Source: Escherichia phage vB_EcoM_G37-3. From it: a stretch of DNA of 64,000 bases. The first letter of the stretch is position 1. Each line of letters begins with the position of its first letter. Shown piece after piece: positions 32,056-41,818 of this stretch. The stretch lies in sequence record MK327941.1, one strand, 5' to 3'. The notes beneath the pieces were generated by a model, which saw only the letters and a list, made by a program, of their open reading frames with translations, was not told the origin of the DNA and searched no databases. Position numbers and translations under genes: made by a program.

Positions 32056-33642
32056 ATGAAAACTACCAAAGAACTGATGGAAAAATGGTCCCCGCTGCTG
32101 GAGAACGAAAAACTGCCGGAAATCGCAACTGCGTCTAAGCAGAAACTGGTTGCTAAAATTCTGGAATCTCAGGAAGCGGATTTTGCTGTAGACCCGATCT
32201 ATAAGGATGAAAAAGTTGTTGAAGCATTCGGTGGCTTTATCGCAGAAGCCGAAGTTGCTGGCGACCACGGTTATGACGCATCTAATATCGCGGCTGGTCA
32301 GACTACCGGTGCAATCACCAACGTAGGTCCGGCTGTTATCGGTATGGTTCGCCGTGCTATCCCTAACCTGATCGCATTTGATATTTGTGGTGTTCAGCCG
32401 ATGAGCACTCCGACTAGCCAGATCTTTGCAATCCGTTCTGTATACGGTGGCGATCCGCTGAAATCTGGTGCTCGCGAAGCATTCCACCCGATGTATGCAC
32501 CTGATGCGTTCCATAGCTCTCTTGCTGCTAAAGGTGCAACCGTAGGTTCACCAACTGGTACTGCATTCGCTAAACTAACTCTTTCCCAGGCTATCGCTGC
32601 TGGTGATATCGTATATCACACCTTCGCAGAAACTGGTATTGCGTATCTGCAAAACGTAACTGGTGATTCTGTAACCCCTACCAAAGCAGGTCAAGAAACC
32701 GAAGACGAAACTGTTATGAAACTGATCGAAGAAGGTAAATTGGCTGAAATCGCTTATGGTATGGCTACTTCCATTGCCGAAATTCAGGAAGGCTTTAACG
32801 GTTCCAGCAATAACCCGTGGGCTGAAATGTCAATGCGTATTGACAAACAGGTTGTTGAAGCGAAATCTCGCCAACTGAAAGCCCGTTACTCTATCGAAGT
32901 TGCGCAGGATCTGCGTGCTGTACACGGTATGGATGCTGACGCTGAACTGAATGCTATCCTGGCTAACGAAGTTCTGCTGGAAATCAACCGTGAAATCGTT
33001 GACGTCATCAACTTTACCGCTCAGGTTGGTAAGACTGGTATGACTCAGACCGTTGGTTCTAAAGCTGGTGTATTTGACCTGCAAGACCCGATCGATACTC
33101 GCGGTGCTCGTTGGGCTGGTGAATCCTTCAAATCTCTGATCTACCAGATCGACAAAGAAGCTGCTGAAATCGCTCGTCAGACTGGTCGCGGTGCGGGTAA
33201 CTTTGTTATCGCTTCCCGTAACGTTGTAAACATCCTGGCTTCTGCTGATCAGGGTATCAGTCTTGCTATGCAGGGTGCTGCAAAAGGTCTGAATACCGAC
33301 ACCACTAAAGCTGTTTTCGCTGGTGTTCTGGCTGGTAAGTACAAAGTGTTCATCGACCAGTATGCTCGTCAGGACTACTTCACTGTAGGTTACAAAGGCG
33401 ACAACGAAATGGATGCTGGTATCTACTATGCTCCGTATGTTGCTCTGACTCCGCTGCGTGCAACTGACCCGCAGTCTTTCCACCCGGTTCTGGGCTTCAA
33501 GACTCGCTATGGCATCGGTATTAACCCGTTTGCAGACAGCAAATCCCAGGCACCGTCCGCTCGCATCACCTCCGGTATGTTGAGCAAAGACAGCGTAGGT
33601 AAAAACGCATACTTCCGTCGTGTATGGGTTAAAGGTTGCTAA
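32056..33642 (+). CDS. 23: major capsid protein gp23
   Basis: 528 aa (T4 521); position and size. Confidence 0.95.
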   Translation: MKTTKELMEKWSPLLENEKLPEIATASKQKLVAKILESQEADFAVDPIYKDEKVVEAFGGFIAEAEVAGDHGYDASNIAAGQTTGAITNVGPAVIGMVRRAIPNLIAFDICGVQPMSTPTSQIFAIRSVYGGDPLKSGAREAFHPMYAPDAFHSSLAAKGATVGSPTGTAFAKLTLSQAIAAGDIVYHTFAETGIAYLQNVTGDSVTPTKAGQETEDETVMKLIEEGKLAEIAYGMATSIAEIQEGFNGSSNNPWAEMSMRIDKQVVEAKSRQLKARYSIEVAQDLRAVHGMDADAELNAILANEVLLEINREIVDVINFTAQVGKTGMTQTVGSKAGVFDLQDPIDTRGARWAGESFKSLIYQIDKEAAEIARQTGRGAGNFVIASRNVVNILASADQGISLAMQGAAKGLNTDTTKAVFAGVLAGKYKVFIDQYARQDYFTVGYKGDNEMDAGIYYAPYVALTPLRATDPQSFHPVLGFKTRYGIGINPFADSKSQAPSARITSGMLSKDSVGKNAYFRRVWVKGC

Positions 33643-33727
33643 TATAAGCCATTCCTGAAAAACTTCGGTCGGGTGCAATACCCGACTTATCATAAACCTT
33701 ATGACAGTGTAAAGTGTTAATTCCAAA

Positions 33728-33755
33728 GGGAAGACTCGAAAGGGTCTTCCCTTTT
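33728..33755 (+). terminator. rho-independent terminator after gene 23
   Basis: gggaagac-N8-gtcttccc followed by TTTT; a second hairpin gtcgggt-gcaat-acccgac lies at 33668-33686. Confidence 0.6.
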
Positions 33756-33771
33756 GCGTATTATATCCCGT

Positions 33772-33779
33772 TATAAATA
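33772..33779 (+). promoter_or_regulatory. late promoter motif TATAAATA in the 23-24 spacer
   Basis: Exact motif; no ORF immediately downstream. Confidence 0.4.
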
Positions 33780-34142
33780 AGGTTGCAAGCCTATATTCTA
33801 TTTGGAGCGAAAATAGATACACACAACAAAGACAGGAAGATGCAGAACATCGGTGGGTTGCGATCCTAAATCCGGTGGCTATGATATGTGATTGATTTTG
33901 ATGCGGGATTTATTAAAACACAACAAACAATTCCACCAATTTTCGTAGTAACTGCATGGCAAAGGACCAATGAATGAGATGAGCGTTCATGCTGTGATAT
34001 TGGGTCGGATAGATTTGGTAGATATACAGATCTGGTGTATGCCGACCTTGTTATGACATTCCAGCGTGACGCTAGCGGTAATTTTTTGGTTTTGGTACGC
34101 TGTTCCCTGAATTAACCCAAAATTCTCCATAAGGAGGAATGC

Positions 34143-34295
34143 ATGAGTAAGAAAGAAAACAGCTATGTTATGACTCGTAAGGAATACAACGAATTGATGT
34201 TAGCATTAGCTTATGCAATTATTCGTTCTGATCATGCAATTAATCTGGTAAACAAAGTTAACCGTAGCGTTGATAATGTTTCTAGGAAGAAGTAA
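34143..34295 (+). CDS. hypothetical small protein (50 aa)
   Basis: AAGGAGG SD 6 nt upstream of ATG; MSKKENSYVMTRKEYNELML...; below the ORF-track length cutoff. Confidence 0.5.
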   Translation: MSKKENSYVMTRKEYNELMLALAYAIIRSDHAINLVNKVNRSVDNVSRKK

Positions 34296-34334
34296 GTTTA
34301 TTTTTGGAATCCTTTGGATTCCTTTTTCTTTTTG

Positions 34335-34342
34335 TATAAATA
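34335..34342 (+). promoter_or_regulatory. late promoter motif TATAAATA upstream of gene 24
   Basis: Exact motif about 38 nt upstream of ATG 34380; preceded by hairpin ggaatcc-ttt-ggattcc. Confidence 0.55.
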
Positions 34343-34379
34343 TGATATATCCATTAAGGCAAATACAGGATTCATAAAC

Positions 34380-35621
34380 ATGACTCATATTTTTACTGAA
34401 CTGTTGCGGGAATCTACTTCCTCAGTAGCTAACCAGACAGCGCGACCGCAACTATTATCATTAACTCGCGCGGTAAACAACCTGATTTTCTCTGATCTGG
34501 TAGCAATCCAGCCAACGGATCAACCAGTATCTGCATTGTACGGCCTACGTTATCTTAATCATGATGGTCAGATGACTTTCCGAACTGCTGCAACCTACGG
34601 TGGCGCGGTTGGTGATCGCACAGAGATTGAAGAGTTTTCAAAAGAAAAATCTTATGACGAAGGCGCACTATTCAAATCAGGCGATGTTGTATACGAAGTT
34701 GTGACCGCTGGTACAGTCGGTGAAGATGCCGAAACTCCAGAAGCTGCGATCTTTAAAGGCGTAATGACAAACAAAATTCGTTTCTATAGCGATTGTGCAT
34801 CGGTAGAATACTTTGAAGATAAAAACACCGAAATTGCGTCTACCTCTATGCAGTTTGACAAGTGGCAAGTTAATGTAGGTTCTCGTAAACTGAAAACCTC
34901 GTTCACCACTGAATTAATGCAGGATCTTGAGGCAAGCCAAATCAACTCTGAAAACTCTGTAATTGATCTTCTGGCTACTGTTGCTTCCGAAGAGATCAAC
35001 AAAGATATTATTCAGAAGTTGATCACTGTATCATCTCGCTATAAAATTAAAGGGATCACCCCTGATGGCGTACTTTCTCTCGTTAGCGTTCAGGATGCAC
35101 CAACACAAGCGCGTGAACTTTACCGCTATGCTTGCGAGATGAGCAATCAAATGTTGCGGACTTCCTCCTTTGCTGGTACATACGTTTTGGCGTCTTCTCG
35201 CGTGGTTGGCCTCCTGCAATCATCCGGTTGGATGGAAGAAACCGACAATGCTCTAAGCGAAGGTCGTCTGCGTTGCGGTCTGGAAGTGTACGCAGACACG
35301 ACAACACCTTTCGATTATATGCTCGTTGGTTGTAAGCACATGATCGGTGATATGGAGAGTGTAGGTTCTCTGTTCTACTCCCCATATACAGAAGCCGACG
35401 GCGCTGGCGCGTATAAGAGCGTAATTGACCCTAATAGCTTCCAGCATCATGTAGCTATTATGAATCGTTATTCACTCTCTGTCAACCCATACACATCAAA
35501 AGTTGATCAGGAAGAACACCAGGTCATCAAGGGTGACGATTGGGGTAAAATGGCTGGGCGTTCAGAAATGTCCTACATTTTAGGAATCGAACTGCCACCG
35601 CTTGAGATTGACAACGCTTAA
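34380..35621 (+). CDS. 24: capsid vertex protein gp24
   Basis: Start at ATG 34380 (MTHIFTELLRESTSS..), which resembles T4 gp24 N-terminus; track start 34314 lies upstream of the late promoter. Confidence 0.85.
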   Translation: MTHIFTELLRESTSSVANQTARPQLLSLTRAVNNLIFSDLVAIQPTDQPVSALYGLRYLNHDGQMTFRTAATYGGAVGDRTEIEEFSKEKSYDEGALFKSGDVVYEVVTAGTVGEDAETPEAAIFKGVMTNKIRFYSDCASVEYFEDKNTEIASTSMQFDKWQVNVGSRKLKTSFTTELMQDLEASQINSENSVIDLLATVASEEINKDIIQKLITVSSRYKIKGITPDGVLSLVSVQDAPTQARELYRYACEMSNQMLRTSSFAGTYVLASSRVVGLLQSSGWMEETDNALSEGRLRCGLEVYADTTTPFDYMLVGCKHMIGDMESVGSLFYSPYTEADGAGAYKSVIDPNSFQHHVAIMNRYSLSVNPYTSKVDQEEHQVIKGDDWGKMAGRSEMSYILGIELPPLEIDNA

Positions 35622-36209
35622 CTAAATATCTAACCAAGACAAGTCAGATCCGCCAAAGATTTTTTCGACGGCGGATCTATTTTCTTGATGATATAAGTTA
35701 AAACATGGTATCCCATGTCTACGGGCAACATAAACAGCAATTCGAGTTCCTCCCGAAACGATTCCATTAACTTCTTTCGCCCAGAATATCACACAATCTA
35801 CAGGGTCATCAAGTGTCTCACCTAAGACTTGAGCGACATTTCTAGAAAACAGATTTTGCATGTATAACGGTATAGAACGAGGATTATCATAAACGTGTTC
35901 TAATTCATCCATCGCCAGATTTTTTTGTTCTAAGGTTTGCCATGCAATCACATCATGACCGTTATGCTTGTGGTCATAAAACTTCCAATTTGGAATGAAA
36001 ATTTTTCTATAATCTGGATCGTAATACTTCATGAAAGCATTGTCCATACCGTAAGCCCCTCCAGAATGCGCTACAACGCGATTTTCTGACAATACCCTCC
36101 CAATGGTACTAGCCATTATCAAAATGTCGCTAGGCGCTTTTCTAGAGCCGATTAAAGCACATCTACGAAGTGGTTTTACTCCAAATAGATCTTGTAACTG
36201 GTCAAACAT
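35622..36209 (-). CDS. DprA/Smf-like Rossmann-fold (SLOG) protein
   Basis: 195 aa; LIGSRKAPSD..VVAHSGGAYGMDNA and GIVSGGTRIAVYVARRHGIPCFNL resemble DprA core; GGAGGA SD; convergent with gene 24. Confidence 0.5.
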   Translation of the reverse strand: MFDQLQDLFGVKPLRRCALIGSRKAPSDILIMASTIGRVLSENRVVAHSGGAYGMDNAFMKYYDPDYRKIFIPNWKFYDHKHNGHDVIAWQTLEQKNLAMDELEHVYDNPRSIPLYMQNLFSRNVAQVLGETLDDPVDCVIFWAKEVNGIVSGGTRIAVYVARRHGIPCFNLYHQENRSAVEKIFGGSDLSWLDI

Positions 36210-36361
36210 AATATTTCCTCCATAGAAAGCAATATCATACTACAAGTTAATAACAAATACAAGTATCCGCGTAGCGGAAGCGAGCACAGCGAGCAATAAA
36301 ACACTTCCAGTAATTGATTAATAAATGTTCGAAACAAATTTTTATTATTCTATAAGATAAG

Positions 36362-36387
36362 TCTTCGTTTTGATCATAATTTAATCA
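36362..36387. repeat. 26-bp direct repeat copy 1 (tcttcgttttgatcataatttaatca)
   Basis: Exact match to copy at 36511-36536. Confidence 0.7.
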
Positions 36388-36510
36388 TACATGTAAAAAC
36401 TACACAAAAGGATATCGCTTCGCGAACTCCTACGGAGTATAACATTTGTGTTACAATATGTAGTGATTAATAATTAACCAAAGATACATTTTCTATGTTC
36501 TAAAGATCTT

Positions 36511-36536
36511 TCTTCGTTTTGATCATAATTTAATCA
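36511..36536. repeat. 26-bp direct repeat copy 2
   Basis: Exact match to copy at 36362-36387; both within an ORF-free AT-rich spacer. Confidence 0.7.
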
Positions 36537-36588
36537 AACAGTATTAATATTGTGCACATGTAAACTAAAATTATGTTAATAACAGATA

Positions 36589-36616
36589 CAAAAAAGCCGC
36601 CCCGAAGGACGGCTAA
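36589..36616 (-). terminator. rho-independent terminator after reverse gene 36623..37060
   Basis: Reverse strand agccgtcc-ttcg-gggcggct then U-run. Confidence 0.6.
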
Positions 36617-36622
36617 TGTTAA

Positions 36623-37060
36623 TTATTTGTTGATAACGATCTGATTTCGGCGAATGGTAACATTACTCTTAGAGATGATCAGATCATCCGGCACTACGTT
36701 AGTTTTGTATGGTTGGAAGCGAACAAGCATCTGATTGCGTTTAGACCCTTCCTTAATCTTGATTTCCATCTGAATATTGTTGCCTACGTGAGCAACCGCA
36801 ATTTCACCTTTATTCTCATAGACCCACTTGCTGGTAACGTCTCCAGCAAAAGCCTTAATAACTTGCAATGCTTCGTCGTATGCGGTAGAGCTGTGAACTT
36901 TCAGAAGGCCAGCCGTAGCAAGACGGGAGCAGGTGATCGCCGGAGATTGCCAAACATCAACATTAATTTGCTCAATCAGAGTAACACCGCCCTGGTCAAC
37001 TGCTTTGAATGCTTCAAACATTGTCTTTTTCATTGCTACGTGGTTTTTACGGAATTTCAT
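36623..37060 (-). CDS. hypothetical protein (145 aa)
   Basis: ORF track; GAGGTG SD upstream of ATG 37060. Confidence 0.6.
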   Translation of the reverse strand: MKFRKNHVAMKKTMFEAFKAVDQGGVTLIEQINVDVWQSPAITCSRLATAGLLKVHSSTAYDEALQVIKAFAGDVTSKWVYENKGEIAVAHVGNNIQMEIKIKEGSKRNQMLVRFQPYKTNVVPDDLIISKSNVTIRRNQIVINK

Positions 37061-37106
37061 AATTAGTCACCTCTATTGATTAGTTATTCAGAATATTAAT
37101 TACAAA

Positions 37107-37382
37107 TCAGGACATTGCCCGTTTGAATGCGTCCATTATAACAGTGTTATTTGGCTTGTCAACACGTTTTTGAACTTTATTTTTAAATTTTTTGTTGATG
37201 TGGTGTTTACGATAAACAACCTTTTCACGGTTGGCGTAAGCCTCTCGTGCATCTTTTACCATCAACCATGCCTTAGCCGCATCTTGTCCGCTGATCCCGC
37301 CAATCTTCTTAGCAATATCAACAAAATTAAGACCGTGGTCTTCGCGTAGCATGTAAACCATTAACGCTGTTTTCTTGTCCAT
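37107..37382 (-). CDS. hypothetical protein with HTH-like segment (91 aa from internal Met)
   Basis: Track ORF 37107..37490; start preferred at ATG 37382 (MDKKTALMV..) to avoid a 108-nt overlap with the upstream ORF; LNFVDIAKKIGGISGQDAAKAW is HTH-like. Confidence 0.5.
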   Translation of the reverse strand: MDKKTALMVYMLREDHGLNFVDIAKKIGGISGQDAAKAWLMVKDAREAYANREKVVYRKHHINKKFKNKVQKRVDKPNNTVIMDAFKRAMS

Positions 37383-37579
37383 CACTTCGCCCCATTGACG
37401 ATTAACAGGATAGTGATCAGCACCGGAAACTGGATCATGATAGTGCCAATAAACCGGATAAATGCATTTTCTGACTTCCACACATGACATGCGACTAGCT
37501 GATAGACCATTGTTGAAACCAGAACTAGGATATAAACCGAAAGCGGTGTAACTTCGATTAGTCGGGAAATCTCATTCAT
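37382..37579 (-). CDS. small hydrophobic (membrane) protein, 65 aa
   Basis: ORF track; GAGGTG SD; two hydrophobic stretches. Confidence 0.45.
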   Translation of the reverse strand: MNEISRLIEVTPLSVYILVLVSTMVYQLVACHVWKSENAFIRFIGTIMIQFPVLITILLIVNGAK

Positions 37580-37706
37580 ACTTCACCTCATACATTCATA
37601 AACACAACAACGAATAATACAGTAACAGTTATCAACGCCATTTTCAACCCCATATTCATAATATTTTCTTCGCCTCACTATGGACAGTAGCAGGTCGATG
37701 CGTGCC

Positions 37707-37734
37707 ATTATAGGCATCTAAATCGCTCTGTCAA
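37707..37734 (-). promoter_or_regulatory. sigma70-type promoter (reverse strand) TTGACA-N16-TATAAT
   Basis: Reverse complement of tgtcaa (37729-37734) and attata (37707-37712). Confidence 0.5.
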
Positions 37735-37744
37735 GCACAAAAAC

Positions 37745-37768
37745 AAAAAGCCACCCCGAAGGATGGCT
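37745..37768 (-). terminator. rho-independent terminator after hoc
   Basis: Reverse strand agccatcc-ttcg-gggtggct followed by U-run. Confidence 0.55.
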
Positions 37769-37779
37769 GATAGATTTCA

Positions 37780-38990
37780 TTAAGCAGGATGCGTTTCACG
37801 AATGCGTAGAACTCGCTCTAACGTCGCTCGGTCCAGCTTATGTAACTCTTTGGAATGATACATGAAACCATTGCGAGATTCCATGCAAGTGCAATCACTA
37901 TATTTTTCTTCCGCTGCCGCGATCGTCTCCAGATCTTTGGCGTACTTGCTGGTTGAATAAACTTCTCGATCACGCCACTCTAACCCAGCCTCATTGAATT
38001 TAACAATCTCGTCAAATACCCACCATCCAATGTAGATAAATGAAGTTTTGCGCCACGGGATCGGGTGTACGTAACGAAACATTTTAACAACTTCCATTGA
38101 ACATTTTCGGCTTGTACTTGCTGCAACTTCTACTGTTTCATCTTCGATCTGTTGATATAGTTTAGCAACACACCAGAATTTGGCTGTGTCATCGTAAGTA
38201 GCACTCTCTTTGAACAGATGACCGTCTGGCATGATAGAAAATCCTTCCAGTGCTTCGCCGACCTCACTACCGATTAGAGTCGGTGACGGTTGCCCTTCGC
38301 GCTGCAAATACCAGTTATATTTGATCGTCAATTAGGCATACCGCTAGAATCGCCTACAATGTCCTCTGACACAACATAATTAAGTGATATCTCATTACCT
38401 AGTGCCACGGTCTTTGATTCCACCACATCCTGATCTACGTTCATTGTTGCCAGCATGATTTTAGTCGATGCGCTAGCGGCTGAATCTTCCGACTCGCCCC
38501 ACTTTTACAGTATACACGCCGTTTTTATCTGCTGTAAATTCTTGGATCGTAATATCCTTTTTTGTGTCTATAACGTCATCGCCCTTACTCCAACTATAAT
38601 GTAGTTCATAGTTGTCTGCTGGAGTCTTCCCACCAGAAAAATTGACTGTTGCATGTAATTCTACGTCTGTTTGTGATGATACGTAGAATGCTGCGGTTCG
38701 GTGATATTTACGATTAATGCAGCTTCTTCCATGAGGAAAACTTCAGATTCTACTGATGTCATCGTATCGGTATCTTGTACCGTTACTTTATAGCTACCCG
38801 CATTTTCACTTGTTGCGTCTGCTACAGTTAGCGTAGCTGTGCTATTTTCATGCGGTTGGTCGTCTTTTGTCCATGTATATGTCAAATTGCTGGGTAATGG
38901 TTCGTCACCCGCTACAGTCGCCGTTAAGGTGAAACCATCTCCAGCAAGAAAACATCTTTTGTTAGATTGTATTGATACTGTGAAAGCCAT
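37780..38990 (-). pseudogene. hoc: hoc (outer capsid decoration protein) split over four reading-frame segments
   Basis: Track ORFs 38661..38990 (Ig-like: LTYTWTKDDQ..SYKVTV) and 37780..38331 (FRYVHPIPWRKTSFIYIGWWVFDEI..ESRNGF resembles T4 Hoc C-terminal capsid-binding domain); the 330-bp gap translates as further Ig-like segments in two other frames. Confidence 0.7.
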
Positions 38991-39085
38991 ATAAAGCCAC
39001 TCCCATCGAAAATCCGAATTTAATTAATTGAAATAGTTGATTGTCATCAACCAGATAACCATTGCGAGATTCCAATACATGAGTA

Positions 39086-40126: not shown

Positions 40127-41814
40127 ATGCAAGATATTAAATTCACTTTCTGAACTACTCCCATGTTCAAATTGAATGTAGCGATTCAATTTTATTAGAA
40201 ATGCGAGATTATTTTAGTTTTGAAGTCGAGGGAGCGCGGTTTCAAAAAAGATTTAAGTATGGTGGATGGGATGGGCGTATTCGTCTTTTAGATTACAACG
40301 GAAAGCTGCCAATCGGTCTAACTAAAACCGTGGGAATCTTCGCTAAAAATATGGGCTATAGCGTATGGGTAGATCCTCGCTTATTCGAAAAAGAACAAGT
40401 TACAGAAGAAGAAATTACAAAATGGTGTAATAACTTAGAATTATATTCCGGTGCTAACAGGATCACCCCTCATTGGTATCAATCAAAGGCCGTCTTTGAA
40501 GGTATTTCATCATAAACGCCGTATGTTAGTTTTGCCTACGTCCGCTGGTAAATCTGCGATTGCTTGTATGTTGTCTCGTTGGTACTTAGAGAATTACGAA
40601 GGGAAAGTGTTGATCATCGTTCCTACCACGTCGCTAGTGCTGCAAATGCGTGATGACTTTGTTGATTATCGCCAGTTTCCTTATGAAGCAATTCATACTA
40701 TCATGAGCGGTACTAGTAAACACGTAGGTGATCGCCTGATCGTTGTTAGTACGTGGCAATCTGCATGTAAACAACCTAGTGAGTGGTTCCAACAATTCGG
40801 GATGGTTATTGTTGACGAATGTCACAAGGCCACTGCTAAAACCTGCTAAACATCGTTACTGATATGGATCATTGTCAATTTAAGATCGGCATGACTGGTT
40901 CCCCTCGTGACGGGAAAGCTAACATGATGCAGTATGTCGGGCTTTTCGGTGATATTTCTAAGATCGTGAGTATTGACCGCCTGATGGAAGAAGGGCAGGT
41001 GACAAAACTGAAAATTAACTGTCTTTTCCTTCGTTATACCGATGAGGAATAGCGCGGTTAAGGGGCGAGAATATGCGGAAGAGATCAAGTACATTACATC
41101 TAACCCACGACGAAATAAGTTTGCTTGTAATTTGGCGCTAAAACTCGCTAAGAAGGGCGAAAACGTATTCCTGATGTTCCGCAACACTAAGCACTGAAAA
41201 TTAACTGTCTTTTCCTTCGTTATACCGATGAGGAATGTAGCGCGGTTAAGGGGCGAGAATATGCGGAAGAGATCAAGTACATTACATCTAACCCACGACG
41301 AAATAAGTTTGCTTGTAATTTGGCGCTAAAACTCGCTAAGAAGGGCGAAAACGTATTCCTGATGTTCCGCAACACTAAGCACGGAAAACTTATGTATGAT
41401 GCGTTACAGAAGGTACACGACAAGGTTTATTATATTGACGGTGGAGTTAAGACAGAAGAACGTGATGAATTTAAGAAATTAGCGGAAGGGGAAACCGGGA
41501 TCATTTGCGTTGCATCCTATGGTGTGTTCTCTACTGGTGTTTCCATCAAGAATTTGCATCATGTTATTTTCGGTCATCCAGTGAAGGAATCAACTATCGT
41601 TCGTCAGAGTATCGGTCGTGCATTGCGTAAACATGGTTCTAAGGATATTGCAACGGTCTGGGATCTTATAGATCATCTGGCGGTGAAGACAAAGAGCAAT
41701 AATGCTAAGAAACAGTTTAGCCACCTTAATTATGCTCTTAAACATGCGCTTGAAAGAATAAAAATTTACAACACCGATCGATTCGAATATGTCACGAAAA
41801 CAATCGAGATTTAA
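40127..41814 (+). pseudogene. uvsW: uvsW (RNA-DNA/DNA-DNA helicase) disrupted by at least three frameshifts and an internal tandem duplication
   Basis: Pieces MQDIK (40127), frame A to 40515, frame B to 40849, frame C 40840..41052, frame C 41191..41814; each aligns to consecutive segments of T4 UvsW as recalled (FSFE..RF..RFKYGGWDGRIRLLDYN, LPTSAGKS, DECH, SPRDGKANMMQYVG, HGSKDIATVWDLID). Confidence 0.75.
41007..41380 (+). repeat. perfect tandem duplication inside uvsW (copy 1 41007-41192, 186 bp; copy 2 41193-41380, 188 bp)
   Basis: Copies identical except a 2-bp (gt) deletion in copy 1 that creates TAG at 41050-41052. Confidence 0.85.
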
Positions 41815-41818
41815 TAAA

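Follow-up and report, generated by a model that had tools for sequence, protein, structure and literature searches.

A minimal DprA-like gene beside capsid gene 24

The stretch of DNA analysed here (the window: 64,000 nucleotides (nt) of sequence record MK327941.1, from Escherichia phage vB_EcoM_G37-3) carries, on the strand opposite to capsid gene 24, a gene for a 195-residue protein that an earlier note on this DNA had likened to DprA/Smf. From profile alignments and a structural model, the protein is not a canonical DprA; the description that fits best is that of a minimal family, sister to DprA, in the SLOG superfamily. The reverse open reading frame (ORF) lies exactly where the earlier note had placed it, with its ATG at 36207-36209 and its TAA at 35622-35624, and the three peptides quoted from it, LIGSRKAPSD, AHSGGAYGMDNA and GGTRIAVYVARRHGIPCF, are all present in the translation. 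It also converges on gene 24 as had been said, the two stop codons abutting at 35621/35622. The gene, and the parts of it that enter the comparison with DprA, are the following:

35622-36209, minus strand: coding sequence of the minimal DprA-like (SLOG-superfamily) protein, 195 residues; the same gene as Phi1 ORF164 (phi1p164), PHROG 768
36217-36221, minus strand: Shine-Dalgarno sequence GGAGG, 7 nt 5' of the ATG, read directly from the sequence
36141-36149, minus strand: DprA motif 1, G21-S22-R23 (G-S/T/A-R), from alignments; motif defined in PMC3950713
36042-36065, minus strand: glycine-rich loop S49-G-G-A-Y-G-M-D56, counterpart of the DprA SGxAxGxD
35838-35852, minus strand: DprA motif 2, L120-F-S-R123-N124 (F/L/Y-x-x-R-N/D), in the helix 115-129; motif defined in PMC3950713
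35745-35753, minus strand: G153-G154-T155 loop, aligned to the S-G-S loop of DprA and invariant in 130 members of the family

The window belongs to Krischvirus, the RB49/Phi1-type T4-like coliphages: bases 34000-38500 have matches in 58 phage records, which all belong to this group, and phage Phi1 is the best with 99.2% identity. This 4.5-kb stretch, which all 58 Krischvirus records match, holds the DprA-like gene. Searched alone, the protein finds at least 95% identity in 58 phage records, with 99-100% to the Krischvirus (Phi1/RB49) ORF164; it differs from Phi1 ORF164 by one amino acid, and a hypothetical protein of phage vB_EcoM_G5211 matches it at 100% identity. RefSeq copies in the same genus (Phi1 ORF164) are already labelled "DprA-like DNA recombination-mediator protein", and the gene is thus already known.

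The ORF is a real gene under purifying selection, and more than a chance ORF, because four observations agree. The protein belongs to PHROG 768 (E=3e-60, 204 bits; residues 15-186 aligned to profile positions 4-180 of 191); 1330 phage records contain relatives according to tblastn; among 1.8 billion representative proteins, a profile search returned 4319 clusters at E<=1e-3; and comparison with an 86%-identical homologue on a viral metagenome contig gave 61 synonymous and 38 non-synonymous differences, a dN/dS of 0.11. With a GC content of 39.1% in the gene and 40.6% in the window, there is no sign that it was acquired recently by horizontal transfer.

The only Pfam family matched by the protein is DprA (PF02481), at 22.2 bits for a gathering cut-off of 29.6 and so short of membership, and TIGR00732 gives 14.3 bits for a cut-off of 191. 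The family as a whole is more telling. When 130 diverse members were scanned singly, 90 matched PF02481 (best E 8.3e-7) and 18 the SLOG family "LDcluster4", and none of the 130 matched the Pfam families for LOG (PF03641) or YpsA. A profile of the 130 members aligned by hhalign with five solved DprA Rossmann domains at 94.6% probability (E 6.8e-8) over 146 columns, running from the first strand to the last, which indicates homology over the whole domain and bears out the DprA-like identity. The five-sequence DprA alignment used for this was rebuilt from PDB matches aligned to E. coli Smf; against the single E. coli Smf sequence, a template without diversity, the probability was 4.7%. In the PDB, only DprA chains were matched by the family profile at E<=0.02 (H. 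pylori and R. palustris DprA, E 3e-4 to 0.02), LOG coming next at E 0.15.

The structural model agrees with the profiles. Built by AlphaFold2 with 32 homologues (pLDDT 94, pTM 0.89), it is a single Rossmann domain whose first strand starts at residue 16 and whose last is at residue 169, followed by two short helices only. Its top nine Foldseek matches are all H. pylori DprA chains, with LOG structures ranking below DprA. We also tested whether the family is closer to the YpsA-like/ThsA-type proteins than to other SLOG clades, and it was not.

Wang et al. proposed that two motifs, G-S/T/A-R in the loop that follows core strand 1 (G50-R52 of H. pylori DprA, HpDprA) and F/L/Y-x-x-R-N/D in the pocket helix (F140-N144), mark the DprA domains able to bind single-stranded DNA (ssDNA) and set them apart from LOG proteins, which have PGGxGTxxE (PMC3950713). 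Both DprA motifs are present in the phage family: among the 130 members, G21 of motif 1 is invariant and R23 is kept in at least 90%, and R123 of motif 2 is invariant and N124 is kept in at least 90%, the first position of motif 2 being mostly L and in some members R, A or M. Motif 2 corresponds to F140-R143-N144 of HpDprA (numbering via the alignment with chain 4LJK), which guide the base into the pocket, and the HpDprA mutations R52E and R143E reduce the affinity for ssDNA by about 315-fold and 173-fold (PMC3950713). Residues S49, G50, A52, G54 and D56 of the glycine-rich loop show little or no variation in the family, and the S-G-S loop matched by G153-G154-T155 contains HpDprA G164, which contacts the inserted base.

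A LOG-type nucleotide hydrolase, the competing assignment raised in the earlier note, is ruled out: the segment S152-G-G-T-R-I-A-V-Y160 has no proline or glutamate, so that PGGxGTxxE is absent, and neither the Pfam scan of the 130 members nor the structural ranking favours LOG. What keeps the protein from being a canonical DprA is that it has no SAM or winged-helix domain, scores below the curated thresholds and does not conserve HpDprA R170.

Family members, fusions and linkage to rnlB

The tblastn relatives come from phages of Klebsiella, Pseudomonas, Escherichia, Aeromonas, Acinetobacter and Vibrio and from T4-like phages, Pakpunavirus, Vequintavirinae and other groups, many of them mutually unrelated. 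Nearly all members of the 4319 clusters are stand-alone proteins of about 160-210 residues, and the family is mostly basic (median isoelectric point (pI) 8.5 for 160 members). The short family was also found in 23 plasmids, 12 of which are conjugative, and a scan of bacterial genomes, made with the narrow A1 patterns only, gave three loci, two of them on contigs of metagenome-assembled genomes.

A few larger proteins carry the DprA-like domain together with others. It is fused to NADAR in four of them (P0069, P0148, P0040 and P0042), to DUF4326 in P0160 and L080, to a full RecJ exonuclease in one, and to macro domains in two plasmid copies. Giant ORFs with the domain on IMG/VR contigs encode 3405 residues (L043:414-10631), 3056 (L080:3051-12221), 1446 (L077:5643-9983) and 1269 (L030:5319-9128) and resemble injected 'polyvalent' proteins; the one in L080 has DUF7831 as well as DUF4326, and the one in L077 has an AlkB-like 2OG-Fe(II) oxygenase domain that falls below the Pfam threshold (28.5 vs 31.2 bits).

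Among the stand-alone genes, the homologue in Pakpunavirus PaSzW-1 (L007:1-4564) lies just 3' of PRPP-synthetase-like, Nampt-like and macro genes, which resemble an NAD+ reconstitution cluster. Other recurrent neighbours encode a PTH2-like protein, a GapR-like DNA-binding protein, DUF932 and an SF1 helicase, and on a conjugative Novosphingobium plasmid the homologue is three genes from an SOS-response-associated peptidase (SRAP). The fusions hint at a role in repair or counter-defence. NADAR enzymes strip ADP-ribose from DNA bases (PMC11543638, PMC11125620), and one of them, T4 gp30.3/AdfN, removes it from DNA bases and counters DarTG1 (PMC11825919).

The gene had been described as lying where T4 has rnlB, the gene for RNA ligase 2 (Rnl2). 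As to T4 this is right: rnlB converges on gene 24 at this position, followed by 24.2, 24.3, hoc and inh. The description is incomplete, since many T4-like phages have rnlB and the DprA-like gene there in tandem. The order 24.3, (small ORFs), rnlB, DprA-like gene, converging on gene 24, is found in Citrobacter phage Moon, Proteus phage PM2, Aeromonas phage Ah1 and several IMG/VR T4-like contigs. Clustering of 87 loci at 70% identity of the target gave 58 groups. In 10 of these, including 8 of the 13 that are capsid-adjacent, rnlB was found 5' of the DprA-like gene on the same strand, and it usually abutted or overlapped the start of that gene. The tandem loci (L002:3000-4543, L003:2938-4555, L004:2532-4546, L013-L020 and L038) come from several T4-like genera. 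In RB16 the two genes overlap by 11 nt and lie at a different locus, beside srd and four genes from a Nampt gene. Tight or overlapping spacing is common in T4-type early gene clusters and is weak evidence of coupling to rnlB.

T4 has no DprA-like gene at that spot, and no T4-type phage was among the sampled tblastn matches. Conversely, tblastn of two RnlB proteins found no RnlB in the whole Phi1 genome or in the window (best E 0.59); Phi1 carries rnlA, pseT, modB, the macro-domain gene tk.4 and the NADAR gene 30.3, and its genome has no Nampt. An obligatory partnership with RNA ligase 2 is therefore rejected for this genome, and rnlB and the DprA-like gene can function without each other. The fuller arrangement is a tandem pair, of which T4 has lost the DprA-like member and Krischvirus rnlB. 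What T4 RNA ligase 2 does for the phage is itself not settled, so that a gene conserved as its partner would help to find out. We found no description of this linkage in the literature searched, including PMC9503650, and no paper that unites DprA, bacteriophage and 'RNA ligase 2'.

Surroundings of the gene and decay of uvsW and hoc

No terminator lies between the abutting stops of gene 24 (plus strand) and the DprA-like gene (minus strand); the convergent transcripts would run antisense into each other. In phage Moon, a bidirectional terminator is annotated at the equivalent spot (L002:4548-4571). On the 5' side of the DprA-like gene the window contains:

36234-36262, minus strand: weak candidate sigma-70-type promoter (TTGTAT, 17 nt, TATGAT), picked out by eye and below the scan threshold
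36595-36614, minus strand: strong intrinsic-terminator-like hairpin of 8 pairs (6 G-C) with a T-run, which ends the upstream ORF165 unit
36623-37060, minus strand: ORF165, 145 residues, phrog_15652, no known function; occupies the slot that rnlB has in related T4-like phages

With the hairpin at 36595-36614 upstream of it, the DprA-like gene should have its own promoter somewhere in 36222-36594. That interval holds no consensus sigma-70 site, and no exact late promoter TATAAATA is present on the minus strand anywhere in the window. The 413-nt intergenic region 5' of the gene (36210-36622, minus strand) contains direct repeats, one of 38 nt (36354-36391 and 36503-36540, 89% identical and 149 nt apart) and one of 17 nt (36246-36262 and 36575-36591, 94% identical); Rfam gave no significant match in 33000-39000. 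Among the sampled loci, only those of the Krischvirus group had ORF165, which separates 24.3 from the DprA-like gene. With gene 24 and ORF165 as its neighbours, the DprA-like gene has no phosphoribosyltransferase (PRTase) gene beside it. Farther away, at 33857-33883, the window has insertions of about 20 nt in total relative to Phi1, in the intergenic DNA that separates gene 23 from the small ORFs 5' of gene 24.

The earlier note had also taken uvsW to be inactivated, and in the window this holds. Compared with Phi1, uvsW (40131-41815, plus strand) has 1-2-nt insertions or deletions (indels) at 40138, 40505, 40837, 41049 and about 41200 and a tandem duplication of about 190 bp, the Phi1 segment L001:13013-13208 occurring twice, and it reads as ORFs of 104, 132 and 164 residues. 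The hoc gene (37779-38993, minus strand; 404 residues in Phi1) is likewise broken: indels at 38329, 38499 and 38686 split it, leaving ORFs of 183, 42 and 109 residues. Two dispensable genes, hoc and uvsW, are thus decayed in the window; for uvsW this may reflect a real mutant or an assembly error. The 3.4 kb at 34301-37744, with gene 24 and the DprA-like gene, have no indel relative to Phi1.

What the data do not support is the proposal that a DprA-like factor and a dead uvsW go together as signs of re-wired recombination. The uvsW stretch, like that of the DprA-like gene, is matched by all 58 Krischvirus records. Among the uvsW matches listed, 15 of 15 are in two pieces, as expected without the duplication, and 14 of these 15 records have helicase genes annotated there, the remaining one being unannotated. 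Since the same 58 records match both stretches and the listed ones lack the duplication, the DprA-like gene and the disruption of uvsW are unrelated, and compensation for the loss of uvsW is rejected.

Possible function and comparison with known systems

We propose that the activity of the protein is the non-catalytic binding of single-stranded nucleic acid via a DprA base-insertion pocket, probably on phage ssDNA intermediates and as an accessory protein, a reading to which we give a probability of about 0.45. Nucleic-acid binding is the leading candidate because DprA is the nearest relative by sequence, profile and structure and the ssDNA-binding residues of HpDprA are conserved, and also because the family is basic and its partners (RecJ, AlkB-like, NADAR, macro, Rnl2, helicase) act on single strands. 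The stand-alone DprA-type Rossmann domain keeps the residues of the small basic pocket into which HpDprA takes one base of a single strand, namely the switch arginine of GSR, the LxxRN helix and the loops SGGAxGxD and GGT. The ligand, the time of expression, the partners and the biological role are matters of inference, which we draw as follows. The ligand would most plausibly be phage ssDNA at replication, recombination or repair intermediates. The gene is probably expressed before late transcription, from its own promoter, because it lies on the strand opposite to the capsid genes, has a terminator 5' of it and lacks a late promoter. The protein would then probably have an accessory role, shielding ssDNA or recruiting other enzymes to it.

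Several points weigh against this proposal. The PF02481 match, besides being below the gathering threshold, is confined to residues 15-60, the N-terminal third; neither the Pfam scan nor the model has the SAM and winged-helix (DML1-like) domains of full DprA; and the third DprA arginine, HpDprA R170, aligns to Y160, which is not conserved. The structural scores of sister SLOG families are close behind those of DprA, and in these families the homologous pocket binds free nucleotides. The protein in the window is slightly acidic (pI 6.4) in a family that is mostly basic. DprA and ShosA also need dimerisation for function. The NADAR, macro, DUF4326 and Nampt contexts suit a small-molecule ADP-ribose role equally well (PMC9503650), and in the literature we found no experimental paper on the phage DprA-like family and no binding experiment for any of its members.

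That small-molecule role is a possible, if doubtful, alternative. The SLOG pocket would bind soluble immune signals or toxins derived from NAD+ (cyclic ADP-ribose isomers, ADP-ribose derivatives), or cleave their N-glycosidic bond. As a sponge or hydrolase, the protein would blunt defences that are Thoeris-like or otherwise based on NAD. For viral SLOG domains, the processing or sensing of soluble ADP-ribose derivatives was predicted by Iyer et al. (2022), who also noted the fusions with Macro, NADAR and DUF4326 (PMC9503650). The fusions to NADAR, DUF4326 and plasmid macro domains, and the homologues near Nampt-like, PRPP-synthetase-like and macro genes (PaSzW-1) or Nampt (RB16), go in the same direction. 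However, NADAR and macro domains also act on ADP-ribosylated ssDNA, so that the fusions do not discriminate; contexts linked to NAD or ADP-ribose are found in only about 8 of the 58 locus groups; and the Phi1 genome lacks Nampt. Moreover, by every measure the closest relatives are DprA domains, not YpsA/ThsA-like or LOG clades, and the catalytic PGGxGTxxE of LOG is missing.

Returning to ssDNA binding, a wider version of it, which we consider unlikely as it stands, would make the short DprA-like family a portable 'reader' of single strands: its pocket would hold ssDNA, perhaps at a damaged or ADP-ribosylated base, and hand it to repair or counter-defence enzymes. In Krischvirus it would do so in trans, together with the stand-alone proteins gp30.3/AdfN (NADAR) and Tk.4 (macro), and the target would be DNA ADP-ribosylation of the DarT type or a similar defence directed at ssDNA. 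If true, this would jointly account for the NADAR, macro, DUF4326, RecJ and AlkB-like fusions, the giant polyvalent proteins, the presence on conjugative plasmids and the pairing with RNA ligase 2.

The pairing raises the possibility, to us an improbable one, that the protein is an accessory to RNA repair, which would bind broken single-stranded RNA (e.g. cleaved tRNA loops) and present it to Rnl2. The position of rnlB immediately 5' in most of the capsid-adjacent T4-like groups, and the presence of the pair at another locus in RB16, beside srd, which implies that the two genes moved together, are consistent with this. Yet Krischvirus has the DprA-like gene without rnlB, T4 has rnlB without the DprA-like gene, and 48 of the 58 groups have no rnlB within 8 kb.

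More improbable still, by analogy with T4 Dmd and with the NADAR antitoxin mimic AdfN, the protein could be an orphan antitoxin mimic: once the host has been shut off, it would take the place of the DprA-like antitoxins ShosA or PsyrA, which are labile, and abortive infection by ShosTA or PsyrTA would be neutralised. The antitoxin activity of ShosA does rely on ssDNA binding by the same arginines (PMC12961424), and orphan antitoxin-like counter-defence has a precedent in T4-like phages (PMC11825919). The similarity is limited, however, to the shared N-terminal Rossmann motifs, and the PADLOC matches to PsyrA/ShosA are weak and N-terminal only. In addition to its ssDNA-binding arginines, ShosA needs dimerisation and contact with RecA (PMC12961424, PMC11961720) as well as its SAM domain, for stability (PMC12961424), and the phage protein has no SAM. 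The family is also far more widespread than the known hosts of ShosTA/PsyrTA would suggest.

A recombination mediator would not replace a branch-migration helicase. That the protein loads RecA or UvsX to make up for the dead uvsW is hardly credible, in spite of its DprA-like fold and motifs, the disrupted uvsW of the window and the suggestion of Iyer et al. (2021) that phage DprA/Smf copies may be extra ssDNA-binding proteins in recombination (PMC7824862): the gene region is in all 58 Krischvirus records, the duplication is seen in none of the 15 uvsW matches listed, uvsX and uvsY are present in Phi1, the family is found in many unrelated phage groups, and neither the accessory domains of DprA nor its RecA-interaction surface can be demonstrated in the protein.

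In itself the finding is ordinary, as the gene was annotated and its PHROG family is large; its value is as a pointer to a widespread family. More than 1300 sequenced phages carry a one-domain relative of DprA, including therapy phages against Klebsiella, Pseudomonas, Acinetobacter and E. coli. The two published predictions for such proteins, an ssDNA binder and a processor of ADP-ribose signals, conflict, and our motif analysis leans to a DprA-type nucleic-acid pocket. The linkage to rnlB and the fusions to repair enzymes are leads that can be tested.

The known system closest to the phage protein is bacterial DprA/Smf (PF02481; structures 4LJK/4LJR from H. pylori, 3MAJ from R. palustris and 3UQZ from S. 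pneumoniae), which has the same Rossmann (SLOG) fold, gives the best structural and profile matches and shares with it both signature motifs and the SGxAxGxD and SG[ST] loops. Unlike DprA/Smf, the phage protein consists of the Rossmann domain only, without SAM or winged-helix/DML1 (195 residues, compared with 374 for E. coli Smf), lacks a conserved equivalent of HpDprA R170 and belongs to a family borne by phages and plasmids. ShosA and PsyrA, the antitoxins of ShosTA and PsyrTA (8ZVA, 9VZO), also have a DprA-type Rossmann domain with ssDNA-binding arginines needed for function; ShosA differs in its SAM domain, C-terminal degron, adjacent PRTase toxin and RecA binding, whereas the phage gene has neither toxin partner nor SAM. 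LOG, or 'lysine decarboxylase-like', proteins (PF03641), which are cytokinin riboside 5'-monophosphate phosphoribohydrolases, have the PGGxGTxxE that is absent here, and the RN helix motif is specific to DprA. Finally, Iyer, Burroughs, Anantharaman and Aravind surveyed SLOG domains of viruses (Viruses 2022) and noted phage copies of DprA/Smf in their survey of jumbo phages (Viruses 2021); these belong to the same superfamily and show the same NADAR, macro and DUF4326 fusions. Like the phage protein, the surveyed domains occur as small stand-alone proteins in medium and large tailed phages; the 2022 survey places most of them in a YpsA-like clade, whereas the phage family described here scores as DprA-like.

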